From Candidatus Iainarchaeum sp. (GTDB lineage: Archaea > Iainarchaeota > Iainarchaeia > Iainarchaeales > JAFCCW01): a stretch of DNA of 64,000 bases. The translations under genes were made by a program, and so were the position numbers. The DNA is taken from NCBI GenBank assembly GCA_017609985.1, contig JAFCCW010000010.1, positions 1,765-65,764 on the forward strand. The letters run 5' to 3'. Below are positions 20,226-50,194 of this stretch, piece after piece. Position 1 is the stretch's first letter. Every line of letters begins with the position of its first letter. The notes under the pieces were generated by a model. That model saw only the letters and a list, made by a program, of their open reading frames with translations. It was not told where the DNA came from and did not search any database.

Positions 20226-20375
20226 TTCTAGACAATTAGTTGGGGAATCTTGAGTTATATCTATTTCTTTTATTTTTTTATTTTATGCAAGTTAGGCAAA
20301 GCCACACTGTACCCATAACCTATTATACATAACAATTTTGGGAATTCTTTTATTCTGCCATGTTCTCTTATTTCC

Positions 20376-21182
20376 ATGCCCAAGGTTTTTAAAGGAAAAG
20401 TTGTGCTTGTAATTCCTGTATTCAACGAGGAAGCCAATATTGGCAGAGTATTGCCGCCTGCAGTTGAAGCAAGGGGCAAAGGCATTGTTGACGAAATTAT
20501 AGTGGTTAATGATGGGAGCAGGGACAGGACTGCTGAGATAGCAAAAAGCTATCCTGGAGTCAAAGTGATTGACTCAGATCCCTCTGGAAGAAAAAAAAAC
20601 AAGGGAAAAGGAATGGCTTTGTTTAGGGGGTTTGAGGAAGCTCACAGCCGTGGTGCAGTCGCTGTTGTCACTGCAGATGCGGACTTGCTTAATCTTGAAG
20701 CAGAGCATTTTAATCAAATTCTTCGCGAACTTGGGCGCGAGGGAGTTAGAATGGCTGTTGCAAGAGCGCATGAAAAAATTGGAAGAGGTGCTTTTGGGCC
20801 TATAGACTCTCTTTCCGGAGAAAGAGCAGTAAAAATGAAGTATTTGAATCCTGTTTTTGAAAACCCTGAAAGATATGTTGGGATAAGGAAGGCTCTTCAG
20901 GAGTCAAGGTTTGGAATAGAATCCGCAGTTAATTTCCTGCTTTCTCAGGAAAAAGGCTTTCCTGTGCATGTGGAGAACAGGGGATGGATAAAGTTTTTTG
21001 ACACAGTTCCGTTTCTTTGTTCTGAAAAGCCTTTTAGGAAGGAAGGAAGCGACAGGCAGAAGGTTTCAGCAGAGATTGCTCTTTCAAGGATTGACATGGA
21101 AAAGAAAAAAGCAGAGGCTGGTCTAACAGGGATATTAGGGGAAAGGATCAACCAAATGCTTGGAAAAAGAAGGAGGCGATGA
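20376..21182 (+). CDS. glycosyltransferase family 2, paralog of 12589..13374
   Basis: VIPVFNEE, VVNDGSRD, NKGKG, ADAD, SGERA, SRFGIE. Confidence 0.85.
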   Translation: MPKVFKGKVVLVIPVFNEEANIGRVLPPAVEARGKGIVDEIIVVNDGSRDRTAEIAKSYPGVKVIDSDPSGRKKNKGKGMALFRGFEEAHSRGAVAVVTADADLLNLEAEHFNQILRELGREGVRMAVARAHEKIGRGAFGPIDSLSGERAVKMKYLNPVFENPERYVGIRKALQESRFGIESAVNFLLSQEKGFPVHVENRGWIKFFDTVPFLCSEKPFRKEGSDRQKVSAEIALSRIDMEKKKAEAGLTGILGERINQMLGKRRRR

Positions 21183-21185
21183 CTT

Positions 21186-21527
21186 TTGAGCAAGGTTTTG
21201 AACGGAAGAGTTGTGGCAGTAGTGCCTGCATATGATGAAGAAGAGCACCTGGAAAACGTGCTTAAAGCTCTTGCAGAAGCAAAAAAAACAAGGTGTTGTT
21301 GACGAGATTATTGTAGTTAACGATGGCAGCACTGATGAAACAAGAAAAATAGCAGAGAGTCTGTTTTAGAGGTTGACAGAGTAATAAATTTTACAAGAAA
21401 CAGAGGAAAGGGAGCAGCTGTTTTGGCAGGATTATTGCATGCCAACCGGTCTGGGGCTGAAGCAGATGCATTGGTTAGGAGTGAATCCAGTGCGCGTGGT
21501 GGGAAAAATAAAAGAAAAAAGAAATAA
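21186..21527 (+). pseudogene. truncated, frameshifted GT2 paralog
   Basis: VVPAYDEE, then after a frame change in an A8 run VDEIIVVNDGSTD, then after a second frame change RNRGKGAAVLAG; ends without the C-terminal half. Confidence 0.8.
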
Positions 21528-21580
21528 TACGAGTTGTAGAACAACAAAATTATTTTATTTAACAAAAACAGTTATCTAAT

Positions 21581-22212
21581 ATGCCAAAAAGAGTTCAGCT
21601 TTTTCATAGAACACAACCTCATCTTCTTCCACATATTGAAAAGCATGGTTTGTTGCCTCCAACTGGTGCTGCAAGGCATGGCGTGCCAAAGCTTGCTCAG
21701 AACGAGCGAACTGCAGAAGAGAGAAGAAAAGCAGACGAGCTTGTTGACTCTTTTGCTCCGCCTGGCATCAAAATCAGGCGCAAGGGCGCGATTTTTCTGA
21801 GTTTTTCCAATGAGGGGCGTCTTGTTTATGGCACGCCAAATGACAATAGAGTGGGAATCAGTGTCAAGGTTGATCCTAAGAAATGCATGATTTTTGACAT
21901 GCAGACATATATAACAATGTGCAGAGACAGCTTGCAAGGGAAAGAACTATCGGAAAGTCTGTGAGAGAAACTGCTAAAGAAATTGCTCGGTGGTACTGGC
22001 ATACGGCTGTTACGTTAGAGGAATTTCTTAAATATTATGTGAAAAATAAAAAAGGCACAATTTGGCGAAGGAAGCCAGATGCTCCTAAATCTCGGTCAGA
22101 CGGCAGTCTTTTTCCTGATGGTTTTTACTGGCCCGAAGCTCTCGCAATGGAAAAAATTGAATCAGAATATGTTACGGTTAGGAACCCAAAAATAAAAAAT
22201 CCAAAAAAATAG
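21581..22212 (+). pseudogene. ADP-ribosyltransferase-like (Tpt1/DarT-type motif) protein split by a frameshift near 21940
   Basis: LFHRT...IEKHGLLP and AIFLS in the first ORF, distal PE in the overlapping second ORF. Confidence 0.5.
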
Positions 22213-22268
22213 ATTTTGTCTGGTGACAGGAAAATAAAAACAGTTCTCACTCTAGTTTAAGTGATTGG

Positions 22269-22433
22269 ATGAATCAAAAACTCTTCAAAATCCTGATAAT
22301 TCTCCTCTGCATTGTTTTAGTGTTTACTTTGACGTTTTCAGTAATGGGTTATCTAAATCCCTTGTTTTTCTGGGGGATTGCAATAGTGGCTGGCGTGTTT
22401 GCTTTCATTGTTCTGCCGAGGATGAATAAGTAG
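22269..22433 (+). CDS. small two-TM membrane protein (54 aa, not in ORF track)
   Basis: MNQKLFKILIILLCIVLVF...FFWGIAIVAGVFAFIVLPRMNK. Confidence 0.7.
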   Translation: MNQKLFKILIILLCIVLVFTLTFSVMGYLNPLFFWGIAIVAGVFAFIVLPRMNK

Positions 22434-22796
22434 AAAACAAAGCCAAATTATACATAACAAATAACTGGTTTGTTTCGCTGTAGTTGTCTCTCCGCACAAG
22501 CAATAGATTAAGCATCTGGCTTAGTTTGGGAGAAAATTCTTCTTTTTCTTTCCCTTTTTGCAGTTTTTATCAAAATCAAGCCCCAGTTTATACATAACAC
22601 TCTAACCCCTTTTCTTCCAGTAAAACTATCAACATCGGAATAATCTGCAATTTTTGCAGTCCGAACCCCGTCGCTTCCATTAATTCTTTCAAGATTGGAA
22701 TAATGGCTAAACAGTTGAAAAACTGCGTTTAATCGCTCTTTGCTAGCCAAATACGGCAGTTTAGGGGCTTCTTCCTGTATTTGCTCCCCTCACAAG

Positions 22797-22824
22797 ATGC
22801 AGGATAATACACATTATCCTGCAA
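22797..22824. other. Xer/dif-like recombination site
   Basis: ATGCAGGATAA-TACACA-TTATCCTGCAA: 11+6+11 bp with ATAA-N6-TTAT core, intergenic. Confidence 0.75.
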
Positions 22825-22952
22825 AATTCCCTCGTAAAATATTGGATTTTTGTAAAAAACAGTGTGCGTTTTTGGGTTAGTTTGAGCTGGTTTTTGGTTT
22901 GGGTGGGGGGGGCCTCGTGCCCAAAACAGATTCAGGTTATGTATAAGTCAGT

Positions 22953-23237
22953 TTAATTTTCAGTAAAATCCATCAAGCAATTCTCCAAAATATGCCTCAA
23001 ATTCTTCTGCTCTGCCAAGAATTCTGTACAACTCAGCAACCTCTGCAAGCATTCTTCTGGCCCTGTATCGGGCGGAATCAATCTGCTTCGAATTCGCCTA
23101 AATTCAGGATTTCCTGGGCCAGCGCCAGATTCAACAAGTTCGTGCTTTAGCTCGCGCTTTTTCAAGAAATTAGCACGCATTATGTTCAATCCTTGTAATC
23201 TCTTCCAAAAAATTTTGGAAATTTCAAGCATTTCCAA
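22953..23237 (-). CDS. hypothetical protein or gene fragment
   Basis: 94-aa ORF, TTG start, no recognisable motif. Confidence 0.35.
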   Translation of the reverse strand: MEMLEISKIFWKRLQGLNIMRANFLKKRELKHELVESGAGPGNPEFRRIRSRLIPPDTGPEECLQRLLSCTEFLAEQKNLRHILENCLMDFTEN

Positions 23238-23421
23238 ATTTCTTCTTTTAATCTCAGCTCTTAACCAAGGAGCTTCCCTAACTGGTTTTTTCGTTGAGAT
23301 GTGTGTTTAGTTAGGTTTTTTTGGTCAAAAAACAAACCCATTATGTATAATATGGCTACATAACGGGTTTTGATAAATCTAAATACTGAAAAACTTCACA
23401 ATCTTTATTCTTTTTTTTTGG

Positions 23422-24135
23422 CTATTTTCTATGCCTTGATTTTTGTCTCTCAATTCTTTGCTGAATTGAATGTGCAATGTCTTTAATCGTGATTCTTTTT
23501 ATTTTTCTTTCGTCTGCAGAAGCAGTAGAACTTTCCACTCCAGTCTTCGGGAAACTTATTCCATCAACTTTTGCTCCCTTCTGTTCCAATCCTGCTTTCA
23601 AATGCCTTGTGAATGACTGTACACACCTGTATCTTATTCTTCTTGTTATTTCGTTTCCCAAGGTCAGCCCCATATATTCTCCATAAGCTGTAATCGAAAC
23701 CTGTTTTCCTAATCTCTGATTGTTTTTCTCAATCCTTTCGTTTACTTTGTGCATTATTTCTCCTGCAAGAAGCCTGTTTCTTGCAGCAAAAGTCATGCTT
23801 GCATCACTTAAAAAAAATTCCACTAAATTTCTTCCAAATCTTTTTCTTGCAGTTTCTCTGATTCTAACAAGCTTTTCCTTAATTTCTCTGTTTTTTGGAT
23901 TTTCAAGATTTTCCAGAATGTCATTGTCAAAAGGCCAGACAATAACCATCATTGTTTCGCCCCTGTTTCCTTTTCCAGCTTTATTAATCCTGTTTTCGTA
24001 ATCCTGTAAAATTGCCCCGTACTTTCTTTTGTCTGGAGAATAATGAACTGGCTTTTCAGTTGTTTTTCCCTCGTCTCCCAAAATCCAGTAACCTGGGTGC
24101 ACTAAAACCTCAAAATTTGTTATTTCTTTTGTCAT
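23422..24135 (-). CDS. basic hypothetical protein
   Basis: 237-aa ORF with VLVHPGY and AYGEY...CV segments. Confidence 0.65.
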   Translation of the reverse strand: MTKEITNFEVLVHPGYWILGDEGKTTEKPVHYSPDKRKYGAILQDYENRINKAGKGNRGETMMVIVWPFDNDILENLENPKNREIKEKLVRIRETARKRFGRNLVEFFLSDASMTFAARNRLLAGEIMHKVNERIEKNNQRLGKQVSITAYGEYMGLTLGNEITRRIRYRCVQSFTRHLKAGLEQKGAKVDGISFPKTGVESSTASADERKIKRITIKDIAHSIQQRIERQKSRHRK

Positions 24136-24243
24136 GTACTAATCTCTCTTTTCTCATTAATAAATTTCTTGTTTTTTTTTATTTTTTTCATATTCTCTTT
24201 TAAGAATTTCTATTCATCATCTTTCTGCTAAGAGGTTGGTTGA

Positions 24244-27213
24244 TTGCAACGCGGAATTTTTGTTGCAGCAGCGCTAGCTTTGCTTGTTCTGCTGTCTGGC
24301 TGTTCCACAAAGCTTTCGCACGAGGAGAGGATGCTCTGCATAGAACTCTCTTCTCAGGCAAAAGCTGCGGTTCCGGAATGCGACACAGAACAAGAATGTT
24401 ATGTAGAATTAGAGTCTTCTTTGTTTAATTTTTCTCCTGCTGGCTTTACTCCTGATGGGGAAAAACTGTTCTATAACTTCAAAAACGATGTTGCATTAAG
24501 CTGGCTTTACTTTAATCGCGCAAGAGACAATGCTGGGGAAATCAATTCAATCTGCTCCGCTGACAAGGGCTATGCTTCTCTTCCTCGGAATGTAAATGAA
24601 TTCAATTCCAACCTGCTTAAGGCATTTGAATACTCTGATTTAGCTCATTCAAAAGCATTTGCAATAATTGCAATTGATTATTTTTTCTTGGATTCTGAGG
24701 AAATTCATCTTATTCGTGAAGAACCTTTGTATGATTCTTTTCTTGTTTTTGGAAAAAATCTTTCTGATTTTCAGCTAAAAAAATCTGGTTCCACGAGTTT
24801 TTCTTCAATTTATTTCTCGCGTTTCTCTGACTTTCAGAAAAATTCTTCTTATTCTCTTCTGCCTGTTTTTGTAAAGGAATCATCTGTTCTTGGATTGCTT
24901 GGAAAATTTGACTCTCATCTTGTCAAAGAAGCTGATTTGGGCAAATTTTGGATGCCTATTTTTTCTTCTCTTTTCTCGGATTCAGTGAATTTTTTTATTT
25001 CTATTGAGAACACGGGCAATGCAGTTTCTGCTCTGCGTCAGTTTCCTAGCAACAGTTTGATGCAGGCTTACTCTGGTTTTGTTGGAACAAAAGATTCTAG
25101 TCTGGAAGAATTTTCTGCTTTAATGAGCAATCGCTCTTCTTCTTTTGAGGAAATTGAAAAACGAAACATGGTTCTCAAGGAAAGCATTTCTGAAACTTTC
25201 TCTAAAACAAGCTCAAAAATAGATTCTGTTTCTGCAGGATTTTCTTTTGAGAAAGGATTCATTAAAGAACTTTATTCTGACCTTAACTCTGGTTTTGAAA
25301 TTTCTTCAAAACAGTATTCAATTTCTGATCTGGAAGAATTTTCTTCTGATGCAGAATCAACTTTTTTTGACTTGGAGCGGGAGCTTGCTGAAATAAATTC
25401 TCTTGAAAATCTTTCAGAAATTTCTCTTGGTTCAAAAACAAGCAGACTAAAAAATCTGAATGCTGACTCGATCGAATTGCTTGAAAGCATTAACTATCTT
25501 GAAGAAGAAGTTTTGCAGGGTCTGCTATTGCTTTGTGAAAACCGGGTTTCTTCAATTTCCAATTTCCTGAATAATAATTCTGATTCTCTGTCTGAAATGC
25601 AGAATCTCTCTGATACAAAATCATTGCTTTCCTATTCTGTTTCCAAATTTGAATCTGCTGAATCCCAACAAATCAAGCTTGTTGAATGCAGTAAATCCAT
25701 TGCAAGCCTTAATTTGTTAAAACAGGCATTAGCTGATTATGAAATCTACAAACTTTCTTTTTCTGAATCTGTTGAAAAATGCTTTTCTCGTATTGAATTA
25801 ATTCTTTCAAATCCTGTGTTTTCTGAGCTGGAATTGCTTGAATTCAAGCAACAGTTTCTTGCACTCAAACAGATTTCTGAGACTGCAGAATTTGAAAGCA
25901 TTTCACGGCAATGCCTTTCTCTGAAAAAACGAATTTCAGTTTTTATTCATTCAGCGAAAGAAATCCATGCTATTGAAAATGATTTCAAAGAACTTGAATT
26001 GCTTTACTCTGAGTTTTCAGAGCTTCAAGACAAGCTTTCTATTTTTTCTAAGACAAGCTTTGCTAATGCTGAAACTGCTTTCAAGAAACTAAAATATTCT
26101 TTTTCCGAGCAAGGGCTTAATTTAACAGAATCTGAATCTATTGAATCTCTCAACAGCCAAATTTCTGAGTTGAAGTCATTTATTGATTTAGAAATTTACG
26201 ATCAGGTTCTTGAAAGCATTCGCTCAAGAGCCTATTGGACAGGGGATGAAAACAATAAGACTCTTGTTCTTGAAAATCTTGTTTATCCTTTGAAAACACA
26301 GGCAATCATTGAACTGCAGTCTCAATCAAATCTTGTTCCCTCTGCTTTTTCTTCAAATATTTCCAAAGTCAGATTGCTTGATAACAGCCTCTTAATTGAC
26401 TTGAATTATATTCCTCTCGGTTCAACAGTCATCAAATTTGATAATTTTGATAATAATTCTAGTTTGCAGGATTCAAACACTCTTCTTGAACCAAAAATCC
26501 TTGACTTTGGCCAAAATTCTGAAAAAATACTGGCTGCAAGGCTTGTTTCAGACAAATTTTCAAAAAACCTTGACTCTCTCTATTTACTAAGGGATGTTCT
26601 GATTCCGGAAAAAGTTTCTTTTTTCAGAAAAATATTTGCAGGCACTTCTCCGGAGGAAATGGTTGAAGCAAAGTATATTCCTCCTATTTCTAGTCTCAGG
26701 CTGGAAAAAATTGAACAAGAGTCAATTGAATCTGTTCCAATAACTCTTGCTAGAGACTTTGCAGACTTTGAAAAAGCAGTTTTGGAGGAAAACTGGCTTG
26801 AAGCAGCAAAAATTGCTGAAAAAAGAATGCCTGACCTTGAATCAAAGCTTTCCCTGCTTTCTTCTCGCGAAAAAGAGCTTTCAATAGCTTCGGATTCAGT
26901 AAAAGAAGAAGCAATTGCCTCATATAACAATGCCGTGGCAAAATTCAATGTCTCGCCCCCTAATCAGGATGCAGAGAAAGCAATTCAGGAAGCTGAGGAA
27001 GCAATTAAAGAAAATTCTCTAATGCAGTCAATTCTTCTTTCAAGAAATGCAACAGCTCTTCTTTCAGTTCCAGAGCCAGGAAACCTGGTTGTTCCCTCTG
27101 CGATAATTATTTTAGTCATTTCTGCCTTGCTTTTGTTTTTTGTAAAATACAAACGCAAAAAAGACAGCCAAACAAGAAAAGGCTTTGTGAAAAAGATACT
27201 GAAAAACTGGTAA
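24244..27213 (+). CDS. large Ser-rich exported protein with lipobox-like N-terminus and C-terminal TM anchor
   Basis: LLSGC lipobox; C-terminal VPEP + hydrophobic helix + KYKRKK. Confidence 0.75.
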   Translation: MQRGIFVAAALALLVLLSGCSTKLSHEERMLCIELSSQAKAAVPECDTEQECYVELESSLFNFSPAGFTPDGEKLFYNFKNDVALSWLYFNRARDNAGEINSICSADKGYASLPRNVNEFNSNLLKAFEYSDLAHSKAFAIIAIDYFFLDSEEIHLIREEPLYDSFLVFGKNLSDFQLKKSGSTSFSSIYFSRFSDFQKNSSYSLLPVFVKESSVLGLLGKFDSHLVKEADLGKFWMPIFSSLFSDSVNFFISIENTGNAVSALRQFPSNSLMQAYSGFVGTKDSSLEEFSALMSNRSSSFEEIEKRNMVLKESISETFSKTSSKIDSVSAGFSFEKGFIKELYSDLNSGFEISSKQYSISDLEEFSSDAESTFFDLERELAEINSLENLSEISLGSKTSRLKNLNADSIELLESINYLEEEVLQGLLLLCENRVSSISNFLNNNSDSLSEMQNLSDTKSLLSYSVSKFESAESQQIKLVECSKSIASLNLLKQALADYEIYKLSFSESVEKCFSRIELILSNPVFSELELLEFKQQFLALKQISETAEFESISRQCLSLKKRISVFIHSAKEIHAIENDFKELELLYSEFSELQDKLSIFSKTSFANAETAFKKLKYSFSEQGLNLTESESIESLNSQISELKSFIDLEIYDQVLESIRSRAYWTGDENNKTLVLENLVYPLKTQAIIELQSQSNLVPSAFSSNISKVRLLDNSLLIDLNYIPLGSTVIKFDNFDNNSSLQDSNTLLEPKILDFGQNSEKILAARLVSDKFSKNLDSLYLLRDVLIPEKVSFFRKIFAGTSPEEMVEAKYIPPISSLRLEKIEQESIESVPITLARDFADFEKAVLEENWLEAAKIAEKRMPDLESKLSLLSSREKELSIASDSVKEEAIASYNNAVAKFNVSPPNQDAEKAIQEAEEAIKENSLMQSILLSRNATALLSVPEPGNLVVPSAIIILVISALLLFFVKYKRKKDSQTRKGFVKKILKNW

Positions 27214-48976: not shown

Positions 48977-50194
48977 ATGGCTAACATTTTTGAAGAAGCT
49001 CTTTCAAAAAAAACAGTCTTTTGTGACAGGGACATAATGACTCCGCACTATGCTCCAAAGAAGCTTCCGTTCAGAGAAAACCAGATTTCTGAAATGACTT
49101 CAACTCTCTCTGTTTTAATTGAATCAAAGAGAGCAGACAATCTTTTCATTTATGGCAAAACAGGAACTGGCAAGACTGTGAGCACAAAGCATGTTCTTCA
49201 ACAGCTTTGTGAGTATGCTGACCAGAAAAAAAAATCTGTAAGAAGCACTTATCTTAACTGCAGAAGCCACAACAGCAAGTACAAGATAATAATCAAGATT
49301 TTGAAGAGTTTTTTTCCAGACAAAGACTTTGTTGGTTACAGTGGAACATTTGTGTATGACAAGCTAATAGAGAACATTGAGGAAAGTCAAGCAAGTCTTG
49401 TTATTGCTCTTGATGAAATAGATAAAGTAAAAGATCTTGATGAAATGGTTTATGCTCTTACAAGATGCAATGACGACATGGACAAGGGTTCGATTTCTTT
49501 GGTTGGGATTTCAAACAATCTTTTCTTCAAAGACCGTCTTGATCCGAGAACAAGAAGCAGTCTTTGCGAAAAAGAACTTGTTTTTCCACCATATAATGCA
49601 GAAGAACTTTCAAAGATTCTTTCAGATCGTGTAAAAACAGCTTTTAAGGAAGATGTGGTGGAGGAAAGTGCAATAAGCATTGCTTCAGCTATTGCTGCGC
49701 AGGAGTCAGGGGATGCAAGAACAGCAGTAATGCTGATGTTGCGTGCTGGGGAAATTGCTGACAAAAAAGGTCTTGACAAGATTACTGATGTGGAGGTTAA
49801 GAGAGCAAAGCGCAAGGTTGAAGAAGAAATAATTTTCAACATGGTTTCTACTCTGCCTGAACAGCAACAGCTAGTGCTTTATGCCATTGCTCGTCTGACA
49901 CTTCAAAGAAAAGGAATTAAAAGAATTTCACGAGTTGAAGAAGAACCAGTTCTTGTTTCAGGAGAAATCTATGATGAATATTCCCGAATTGCAAAAGAAT
50001 TCAAGGGAGAAACTGTGAGCATGCGCTGGTGCCAGCAATACGTCAATGAACTCGAAATGTATGGCCTTATTGCAACAACTGAATCAGGCAAGGGATTCAG
50101 AGGAAACACTCGTCTAATAAAACTCGGATTTGATGCAAAAAAAATAAAGACAGCGATTGAGAAAGAAATAGGTTTTTCTTCACAATCTCTCTGA
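48977..50194 (+). CDS. cdc6: Orc1/Cdc6 replication initiator
   Basis: LPFRE, YGKTGTGKT, LDEID, LDPRTRSS, FPPYNAEEL, GDARTA, C-terminal winged helix. Confidence 0.95.
   Translation: MANIFEEALSKKTVFCDRDIMTPHYAPKKLPFRENQISEMTSTLSVLIESKRADNLFIYGKTGTGKTVSTKHVLQQLCEYADQKKKSVRSTYLNCRSHNSKYKIIIKILKSFFPDKDFVGYSGTFVYDKLIENIEESQASLVIALDEIDKVKDLDEMVYALTRCNDDMDKGSISLVGISNNLFFKDRLDPRTRSSLCEKELVFPPYNAEELSKILSDRVKTAFKEDVVEESAISIASAIAAQESGDARTAVMLMLRAGEIADKKGLDKITDVEVKRAKRKVEEEIIFNMVSTLPEQQQLVLYAIARLTLQRKGIKRISRVEEEPVLVSGEIYDEYSRIAKEFKGETVSMRWCQQYVNELEMYGLIATTESGKGFRGNTRLIKLGFDAKKIKTAIEKEIGFSSQSL

Follow-up and report, generated by a model that had tools for sequence, protein, structure and literature searches.

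In the portions of the literature drawn on here, archaeal dif sites are described as sequences of about 28 bp in which inverted arms of about 11 bp surround a 6-bp spacer (PMC8371274, PMC11840125), with TAA-N6-8-TTA as their most conserved feature (PMC11840125). The arms are described there as conserved and the spacer as free and asymmetric (PMC8371274, PMC2958812). For the dif site of T. kodakarensis, the same portions report binding of XerA by ChIP-seq and a location in a 1.9-kb intergenic region with convergent genes (PMC11840125), and Cortez et al. describe conserved flanks and flanking inverted repeats around Thermococcales dif sites (PMC2958812). In Haloferax volcanii and Halobacterium salinarum, dif is placed upstream of the xerA operon (PMC11840125, PMC5357621). 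Archaea are described in these portions as lacking FtsK, and the reviews call the control of XerA without FtsK unresolved (PMC8371274, PMC5357621). A literature search, as far as its sources go, gave no publication on dif in the lineage considered here.

We describe a 28-bp dif-like site, ATGCAGGATAATACACATTATCCTGCAA, at positions 22797-22824 of a 64,000-nucleotide stretch of DNA (the window) from Candidatus Iainarchaeum sp., a DPANN archaeon with a small genome. Four features of archaeal XerA/dif systems were found: the layout and core, a single copy, a XerA protein with intact catalytic motifs, and conserved arms around a variable spacer. The locus resembles the systems of T. kodakarensis, P. 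abyssi, and T. acidophilum (dif2) in having a single XerA-family recombinase and, once per chromosome, a site with almost symmetric arms, and it resembles T. kodakarensis dif in occupying a large intergenic gap between convergent genes. It differs from these systems in the outer arm (TGCAG...), in its DPANN lineage, and in the convergent TATA-like boxes and the CCCTTCGTA box that accompany it.

The 11-6-11 layout, the ATAA-N6-TTAT core, and the position that the site takes in some genomes at a strand-composition switch are also features of E. coli XerCD/dif, whereas bacterial XerCD/dif systems have two recombinases, dissimilar arms, and control by FtsK and KOPS. A sequence that the archaeal core pattern picked out between yneL and hipA of E. 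coli K-12 shared 14 or 17 of 28 bases with the site, depending on orientation; we take it to be E. coli dif, the record being without such annotation. There is, in addition, a likeness to the accessory sequences of the plasmid sites cer/psi and to the polar KOPS/ASPS motifs, in that conserved extra elements flank the core and a promoter-like motif flips its orientation at the site (contig C18 of this genome and the closed genome G016). Unlike in those systems, the polarity of the motif stems at least partly from gene orientation and no accessory protein is known here; the likeness is one of resemblance, and membership is not claimed.

Anatomy and uniqueness of the site

The site reads ATGCAGGATAA-TACACA-TTATCCTGCAA (22797-22824). 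Within it, positions 22798-22823 consist of a left arm, TGCAGGATAA (22798-22807), an asymmetric 6-bp spacer, TACACA (22808-22813), and a right arm, TTATCCTGCA (22814-22823), which repeats the left arm in inverted form without a mismatch over 10 bp. The conservation of half-sites in relatives makes the arms presumed XerA half-sites, and the variety of spacers in relatives makes the spacer the presumed region of strand exchange. An inverted-repeat search (repeat I12) counted the spacer as 4 bp (ACAC) instead, which adds one pair and gives 11-bp arms. The preliminary description of this locus had listed 10-bp perfect inverted arms, a 6-bp spacer, and the ATAA-N6-TTAT core, all of which were confirmed; the length of 10 bp is right because the outermost A...A of the 11-mers given there are unpaired. 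Its remark that the setting is gene poor also held, as the 519 bp from 22434 to 22952 contain no ORF of at least 90 aa and have ORFs of the + strand to the left and of the - strand to the right. The site shares 15 of 28 bases with T. kodakarensis dif, and 15 or more matches were reached by 0.48% of 5,000 random 28-mers from the window. Among the sites of relatives, up to 18 to 19 of 28 bases are shared.

At up to 3 mismatches, the site occurs once in the window and once in the assembly, which comprises 1.16 Mb in 37 contigs and is 86.6% complete; a copy in unassembled DNA is possible. Palindromy alone is common, with 10 perfect inverted repeats in the whole assembly whose arms measure 11 bp or more and whose spacers measure 12 bp or less. 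The genome has one perfect 10-6-10 palindrome with the ATAA/TTAT core, and such a cored site appeared in 2 of 60 genomes simulated with a third-order Markov model (mean, 0.033). Scored with a half-site matrix built from relatives, the site reached 32.4 bits versus 14.2 bits for the next best in the genome. No second dif-like site or half-site was found in the window, where the next best full site scored 10.3 bits.

Conserved arms and free spacers in relatives

The exact arms with a free spacer, searched with up to 3 mismatches, gave a match in 16 of 60 relatives. With the pattern TGCAGNATAA-N6-TTATNCTGCA and up to 2 mismatches, matches were found in 63 of the 195 other genomes of the order, representing 16 of 31 families, and 62 of the 64 genomes with a match had it in exactly one place. 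A reversed control pattern matched none of the 196 genomes. Across 185,579 species genomes, the exact pattern gave 50 matches, 10 of them archaeal.

Forty-two loci were inspected, and 34 (33 distinct sites) were kept for the counts of spacers, flank boxes, TATA-like boxes, and gene orientation. Seven of the 42 (L005, L013, L014, L016, L031, L032, and L034) were dropped for a match inside a long ORF, and L039 was dropped by eye for its poor arms. In the 74 half-sites of 37 relatives' sites, positions T2, G3, C4, G6, A8, T9, A10, and A11 of the 11-mer were each kept in 68 to 74 cases. The spacers, by comparison, took 29 different forms among the 33 distinct intergenic sites, and none of the 33 was palindromic. 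Arm positions 4 and 6 vary (position 6 among T, G, and C) yet stay symmetric in 18 and 25 of the 33 sites, respectively; shuffles reached such symmetry in 14 of 10,000 trials for position 4 and in 0 of 10,000 for position 6, in a test that ignores relatedness. Conserved arms around a free and asymmetric spacer make up the pattern described for dif. The alignment of relatives proposed in the preliminary description thus came out as foreseen there, with the arms conserved and the spacer variable.

The match in G165 is the half-site at the start codon of xerA and hence not a dif site. No match at up to 2 mismatches was obtained in 132 of the 195 relatives. Families f3 (22 genomes) and f31 (7 genomes) fall wholly within this group but do encode XerA. 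The looser core GCNNNATAA-N6-TTATNNNGC was found in none of five genomes from families without a match (G002, G083, G032, G047, and G001).

XerA and its linkage to the site

A profile search of the genome gave three PF00589 matches, on contigs C25, C37, and C35, in agreement with the earlier statement that no recombinase gene lies in the window. XerA is a 310-aa protein encoded at C25:107,991-108,920 and scores 264.9 bits against NF040815, the NCBIfam XerA equivalog, whose cut-off is 220. Its best solved relatives are XerA of P. abyssi (4a8e, 8.9e-52) and XerA of T. acidophilum (5hxy, 1.4e-44), and the catalytic set R..K..HxxR..H..Y is aligned with that of P. abyssi XerA (RVSEL, GKGGKDR, HKLRH, and HS..IY). 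Orthologues at an E value of up to 1e-5 were found in 185 of the 196 genomes of the order.

The site and xerA are on one contig in 13 genomes (match tables were compared by hand, with G165 left out), at distances of 1.8, 2.2, 2.6, 2.9, 3.3, 11.7, 13.4, 13.7, 41.7, 46.9, 47, 113, and 455 kb. The distance is 15 kb or less in eight relatives from five families (four genomes of genus g43 in f27, together with f29, f14, f25, and f17), and the chance of such closeness in a 1-Mb genome is about 3%. Relatedness weakens this evidence because the linkage may derive from one ancestor. The distances of 1.8 to 13.7 kb in these eight relatives, and a copy of the arm at the start of xerA in this genome, recall the xerA/dif modules of haloarchaea; unlike in those modules, xerA here is accompanied only by a half-site, and the full site is on another contig, at least ~97 kb away.

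The arm copy occupies the first four codons of xerA, ATG CAG GAT AAT, which read ATGCAGGATAAT and equal the left arm plus the flanking A (C25:108,909-108,920; L002:2383-2394, - strand). There are five occurrences of TGCAGGATAAT in the assembly, two of which are within the site. Around the 5' ends of xerA, 4,267 nt held 6 arm-like 10-mers (6 of 17 genomes), compared with 4 in 57,334 nt from other parts of these loci. The cases cannot be counted as independent, because ten of the loci were picked for N termini like that of this genome. The arm copy on the start codon suggests that XerA may also repress its own gene, with the copy as a predicted autoregulatory half-site. The xerA start ATGCAGGATAAT is common to G157 and G165, and in G013, G109, and G112 an inverted arm-like 10-mer is found no more than ~60 nt from where the xerA match starts.

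Boxes flanking the site

Several elements surround the site within and near the gene-poor stretch. Motif and repeat searches placed the TATA-like box TTATACATAAC to its left at 22448-22458 (+ strand), with a second copy at 22588-22598 (+ strand) that repeat I10 pairs with positions 22936-22946, where a TATA-like box (GTTATGTATAA on the + strand) lies on the - strand. A further TATA-like box is found at 23341-23350 (- strand) within a hairpin (I7). All four point to the site. The flank box TCCCTCGTA (22828-22836, + strand) begins 4 nt outside the right arm and resembles the CCCTTCGTA copies in relatives' loci; a weaker copy, CCCCTCACA (22786-22794, + strand), lies 3 nt outside the left arm and, with 3 mismatches, is weak when taken alone. 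A sigma-70 and terminator scan was uninformative for an archaeon.

These elements recur in relatives. At the 34 loci, 62 of 67 TATACATA boxes point to the site (30 from the left and 32 from the right), and 5 point away. Their distance from the site ranges from ~20 to more than 200 nt; in genus g27 they lie ~22 to 45 nt from the arms, so that transcripts would start at the edges of the palindrome. In 18 of 34 loci, a CCCTTCGTA box with up to 2 mismatches is found no more than 30 nt from the site, in most cases exactly 4 nt off an arm, compared with 57 of 680 random segments of the same loci, and both orientations occur. Crude stop-to-stop ORF calling, which is noisy and misreads the home locus, placed ORFs on both sides at 30 loci and showed convergence at 13 of them, a count that is no more than suggestive.

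Two checks of promoter character disagree, and the term "promoter-like" is therefore provisional. In G016, 21 of 35 TATACATA copies lie between genes, and a co-oriented gene starts downstream of 17 of these 21. In this genome, an ATG-started ORF of at least 50 aa begins 10 to 90 nt downstream of TTATACATAA in 7 of 30 cases, the same as at random (512 of 2,000).

The 11-mer TTATACATAA(C) is over-represented, with 14 copies versus ~2 expected from composition; 6 are on this contig, and further copies in the window lie at 20323, 27217, 27457, and other positions. On contig C18, all 6 + strand copies of TATACATAA are left of the site and all 8 - strand copies are right of it, and 25 of the 29 copies in G016 are in keeping with the two skew arms. 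Since TTATACATAA(C) is probably a TATA box, this polarity may merely mirror gene orientation. Imperfect inverted repeats of 40 nt (22433-22472 and 22922-22961, 70% complementary), each with a TATA-like box, flank the gene-poor stretch. Left of the site are two 41-nt direct repeats (22604-22644 and 22664-22704) that are 78% alike and both end in GGAATAAT; the small palindrome CTGCAATTTTTGCAG (22645-22659) lies between them, and they are opposite in strand to an 80-aa ORF (22508-22750, - strand).

The boxes raise the question of whether a dimeric transcription factor uses the palindrome as its operator to control the bracketing convergent promoter-like boxes, in which case it would be no recombination site at all. 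The direction in which the TATACATA copies point, their closeness to the arms in genus g27, and the co-oriented gene starts that follow intergenic boxes in G016 would fit such an operator. Against it, each genome has one copy, the core is of the dif type, and 15 of 28 bases are those of a verified dif site. An operator would, moreover, have to be reconciled with the linkage to xerA in five families and with the arm copy on the xerA start codon, and no regulator gene is conserved beside the site, whose neighbors differ between families. The box-to-site distances also vary widely. We consider an operator improbable.

Chromosomal position and gene neighborhood

In several genomes, but not in all, the site lies at or near a switch in strand composition. 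In G016, a closed genome of 1,241,428 bp, cumulative purine excess peaks globally at 964,212, which is 185 bp past the site (964,002-964,027), and is lowest at 282,280. After detrending, the AT and GC maxima of G016 lie 1.1 and 9 kb from the site, and genes converge on it. Over ±100 kb around the site, the purine apex is at a distance of 333 bp in G028 and of 6.4 kb in G024. On contig C18 of this genome, the maxima of GC skew and purine skew fall 266 and 518 bp, respectively, to the left of the site, forming a local apex after a weak rise. No apex marks the site of the closed genome G029, in which the GC and AT skews are monotonic. Because purine skew follows gene orientation, the apex denotes a major point of gene convergence, as expected of a terminus, and not a mapped terminus.

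The closed genomes G016 and G029 both have a monotonic keto (G+T versus A+C) skew over the whole chromosome, which is unusual for bidirectional replication. The keto skew of G029 is strong (GC total, -24,189; AT total, +34,422 over 1.05 Mb), and there is no bipartite GC skew.

A position opposite orc1/cdc6 was expected, and this expectation failed. The gene lies in the window at 48977-50194 (+ strand; TIGR02928, 359 bits), 26 kb from the site, and the distance is 124 of 1,241 kb in G016 and 75, 58, 36, 343, and 377 kb in five further relatives. Colinearity with the orc1 region of G016 extends over 24.2 to 63 kb of the window; in G016, this region is 105 to 139 kb from the site. The window also encodes the archaeal termination factor FttA/aCPSF1.

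Synteny with G016 is broken: the window from 24.2 to 63 kb corresponds to G016 859-825 kb and that from 0 to 12.5 kb to G016 1,080-1,065 kb, which indicates rearrangement of this genome. The genes to the left of the site in G016 have their counterparts at C25:114.8-127.6 kb, beside another purine-skew apex at C25:129,187. A small gene (~120 to 135 aa, with no Pfam match) lies 0.6 to 1 kb from the site in 10 relatives' loci; its homologue in this genome is at C25:127,254-127,610, near the C25:129,187 apex and away from the site.

The stretch from 12.5 to 24.2 kb has no homologue in the closed genomes G016 and G029. Among its genes are those for a family-2 glycosyltransferase (20376-21182) and for CARDB-like proteins. 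The stretch has its end at the dif-like site and may be a variable island adjoining dif. With 11.7 kb of such DNA on its left, the site could conceivably be the attachment site or target of a mobile element, such as an island exploiting Xer, an integron-like attI/attC system, or a LAGLIDADG endonuclease. Free-standing LAGLIDADG_1 ORFs do occur 44 to 150 bp from the site at L015, L028, L029, and L033 (G013, G098, G099, and G019; three families), the family being confirmed by Pfam scan for L015 and L029, and the NCBIfam XerA model is described as "recombinase/integron integrase." Against these points, the window holds no second dif-like site or half-site (10.3 versus 32.4 bits), the 12.5- to 24.4-kb stretch holds no repeated family of attC-like palindromes, and a tblastn search of this genome for a LAGLIDADG remnant close to the site gave only noise. 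Most loci carry the site without a mobile gene. Membership in an integron attI/attC system failed in its own right: the site is single, there is no cassette-type repeat array, and XerA, at 209.6 bits, falls under the integron-integrase cut-off of 265. A site that serves a mobile element in place of dif is very improbable, and a dif site that mobile elements exploit would still be a dif site.

RNA hairpin and chance as improbable alternatives

A perfect 11-bp stem with a 4-nt loop, T-runs after the palindrome, and convergent promoter-like boxes around it could also belong to the stem-loop of a small RNA or to a bidirectional terminator between convergent genes. The symmetric covariation of the arms, seen at position 6 in 25 of 33 sites and in 0 of 10,000 shuffles, would be expected of a stem. 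The distribution of changes speaks otherwise, as the stem sequence is kept and the loop is most variable, which is the reverse of most structured RNAs, and 16 of 42 arm mismatches are unable to pair on either strand. Rfam 15 gave no match at an E value of up to 1 on either strand of 21500-24500. Termination in archaea needs oligo-T and is not known to need hairpins. An RNA would also leave the linkage to xerA without a reason, and we regard this explanation as extremely improbable.

That the palindrome arose by chance and has no function is a negligible prospect: although our base-composition estimate predicts ~5 perfect inverted repeats with arms of 11 bp or more in a genome of this size and 10 were seen, the conservation of the site across 16 families of the order, set against a reversed control without matches, and the appearance of a cored site in just 2 of 60 simulated genomes reject it for practical purposes.

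DISCUSSION

The site is, with high probability, the chromosomal dif of this small-genome DPANN archaeon and the predicted target of its XerA; the operator, the mobile-element target, the hairpin, and chance are unlikely even when taken together. The preliminary description had proposed a chromosome dimer resolution site, a proposal now supported by the single copy, the XerA equivalog, the pattern of arms and spacer, the linkage to xerA, the skew apex in some relatives, and the arm copy at xerA. It had called for a search for xerA and a count of copies in the genome, and these gave the equivalog on contig C25 and one copy in the 86.6%-complete assembly. The findings that it named as speaking against dif did not occur: in place of multiple copies at promoters there is a single copy, in place of a missing Xer-type recombinase there is an NF040815 match above the cut-off, and in place of a lack of conservation in relatives there are matches in 16 families.

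By analogy with characterised XerA/dif systems, two monomers of the single XerA-type tyrosine recombinase encoded on contig C25 would bind the near-identical 10- to 11-bp arms, and two sites on a chromosome dimer would synapse as a XerA tetramer. Cleavage and strand exchange would then take place at the edges of the asymmetric 6-bp spacer, converting the dimer to monomers. The binding by XerA, the positions of cleavage, and the role in dimer resolution are all drawn from that analogy. As the core XerA/dif system is already known, the basic assignment is unsurprising. What is newly described here is the set of convergent TATA-like boxes and the flank box around the site.

The analysis provides a concrete dif site and a consensus, TGC-N-G-N-ATAA-N6-TTAT-N-C-N-GCA, for a DPANN lineage without genetics, and the consensus allows a terminus marker to be placed on these tiny genomes. 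It also yields predictions for XerA, namely, the autoregulatory half-site, the flanking boxes, and the convergent promoters.

A broader and doubtful proposal is that dif in this DPANN order is part of a conserved control module that replaces FtsK/KOPS and consists of the TATACATA boxes, the CCCTTCGTA box, and the half-site at xerA. In such a module, convergent transcription or binding of TBP/TFB would set the timing and direction of XerA recombination, SMC stalling between the convergent units might be involved, and XerA would titrate its own synthesis.

Just downstream of xerA, a palindrome with 12-bp arms, AAAAACAAAAAG-TATACATAAT-CTTTTTGTTTTT (C25:107,822-107,855), is centered on a TATA-like box and looks like a symmetric bidirectional promoter. 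A second TATA-like box lies 53 nt beyond this palindrome, and the same pair is found beside xerA in G016.
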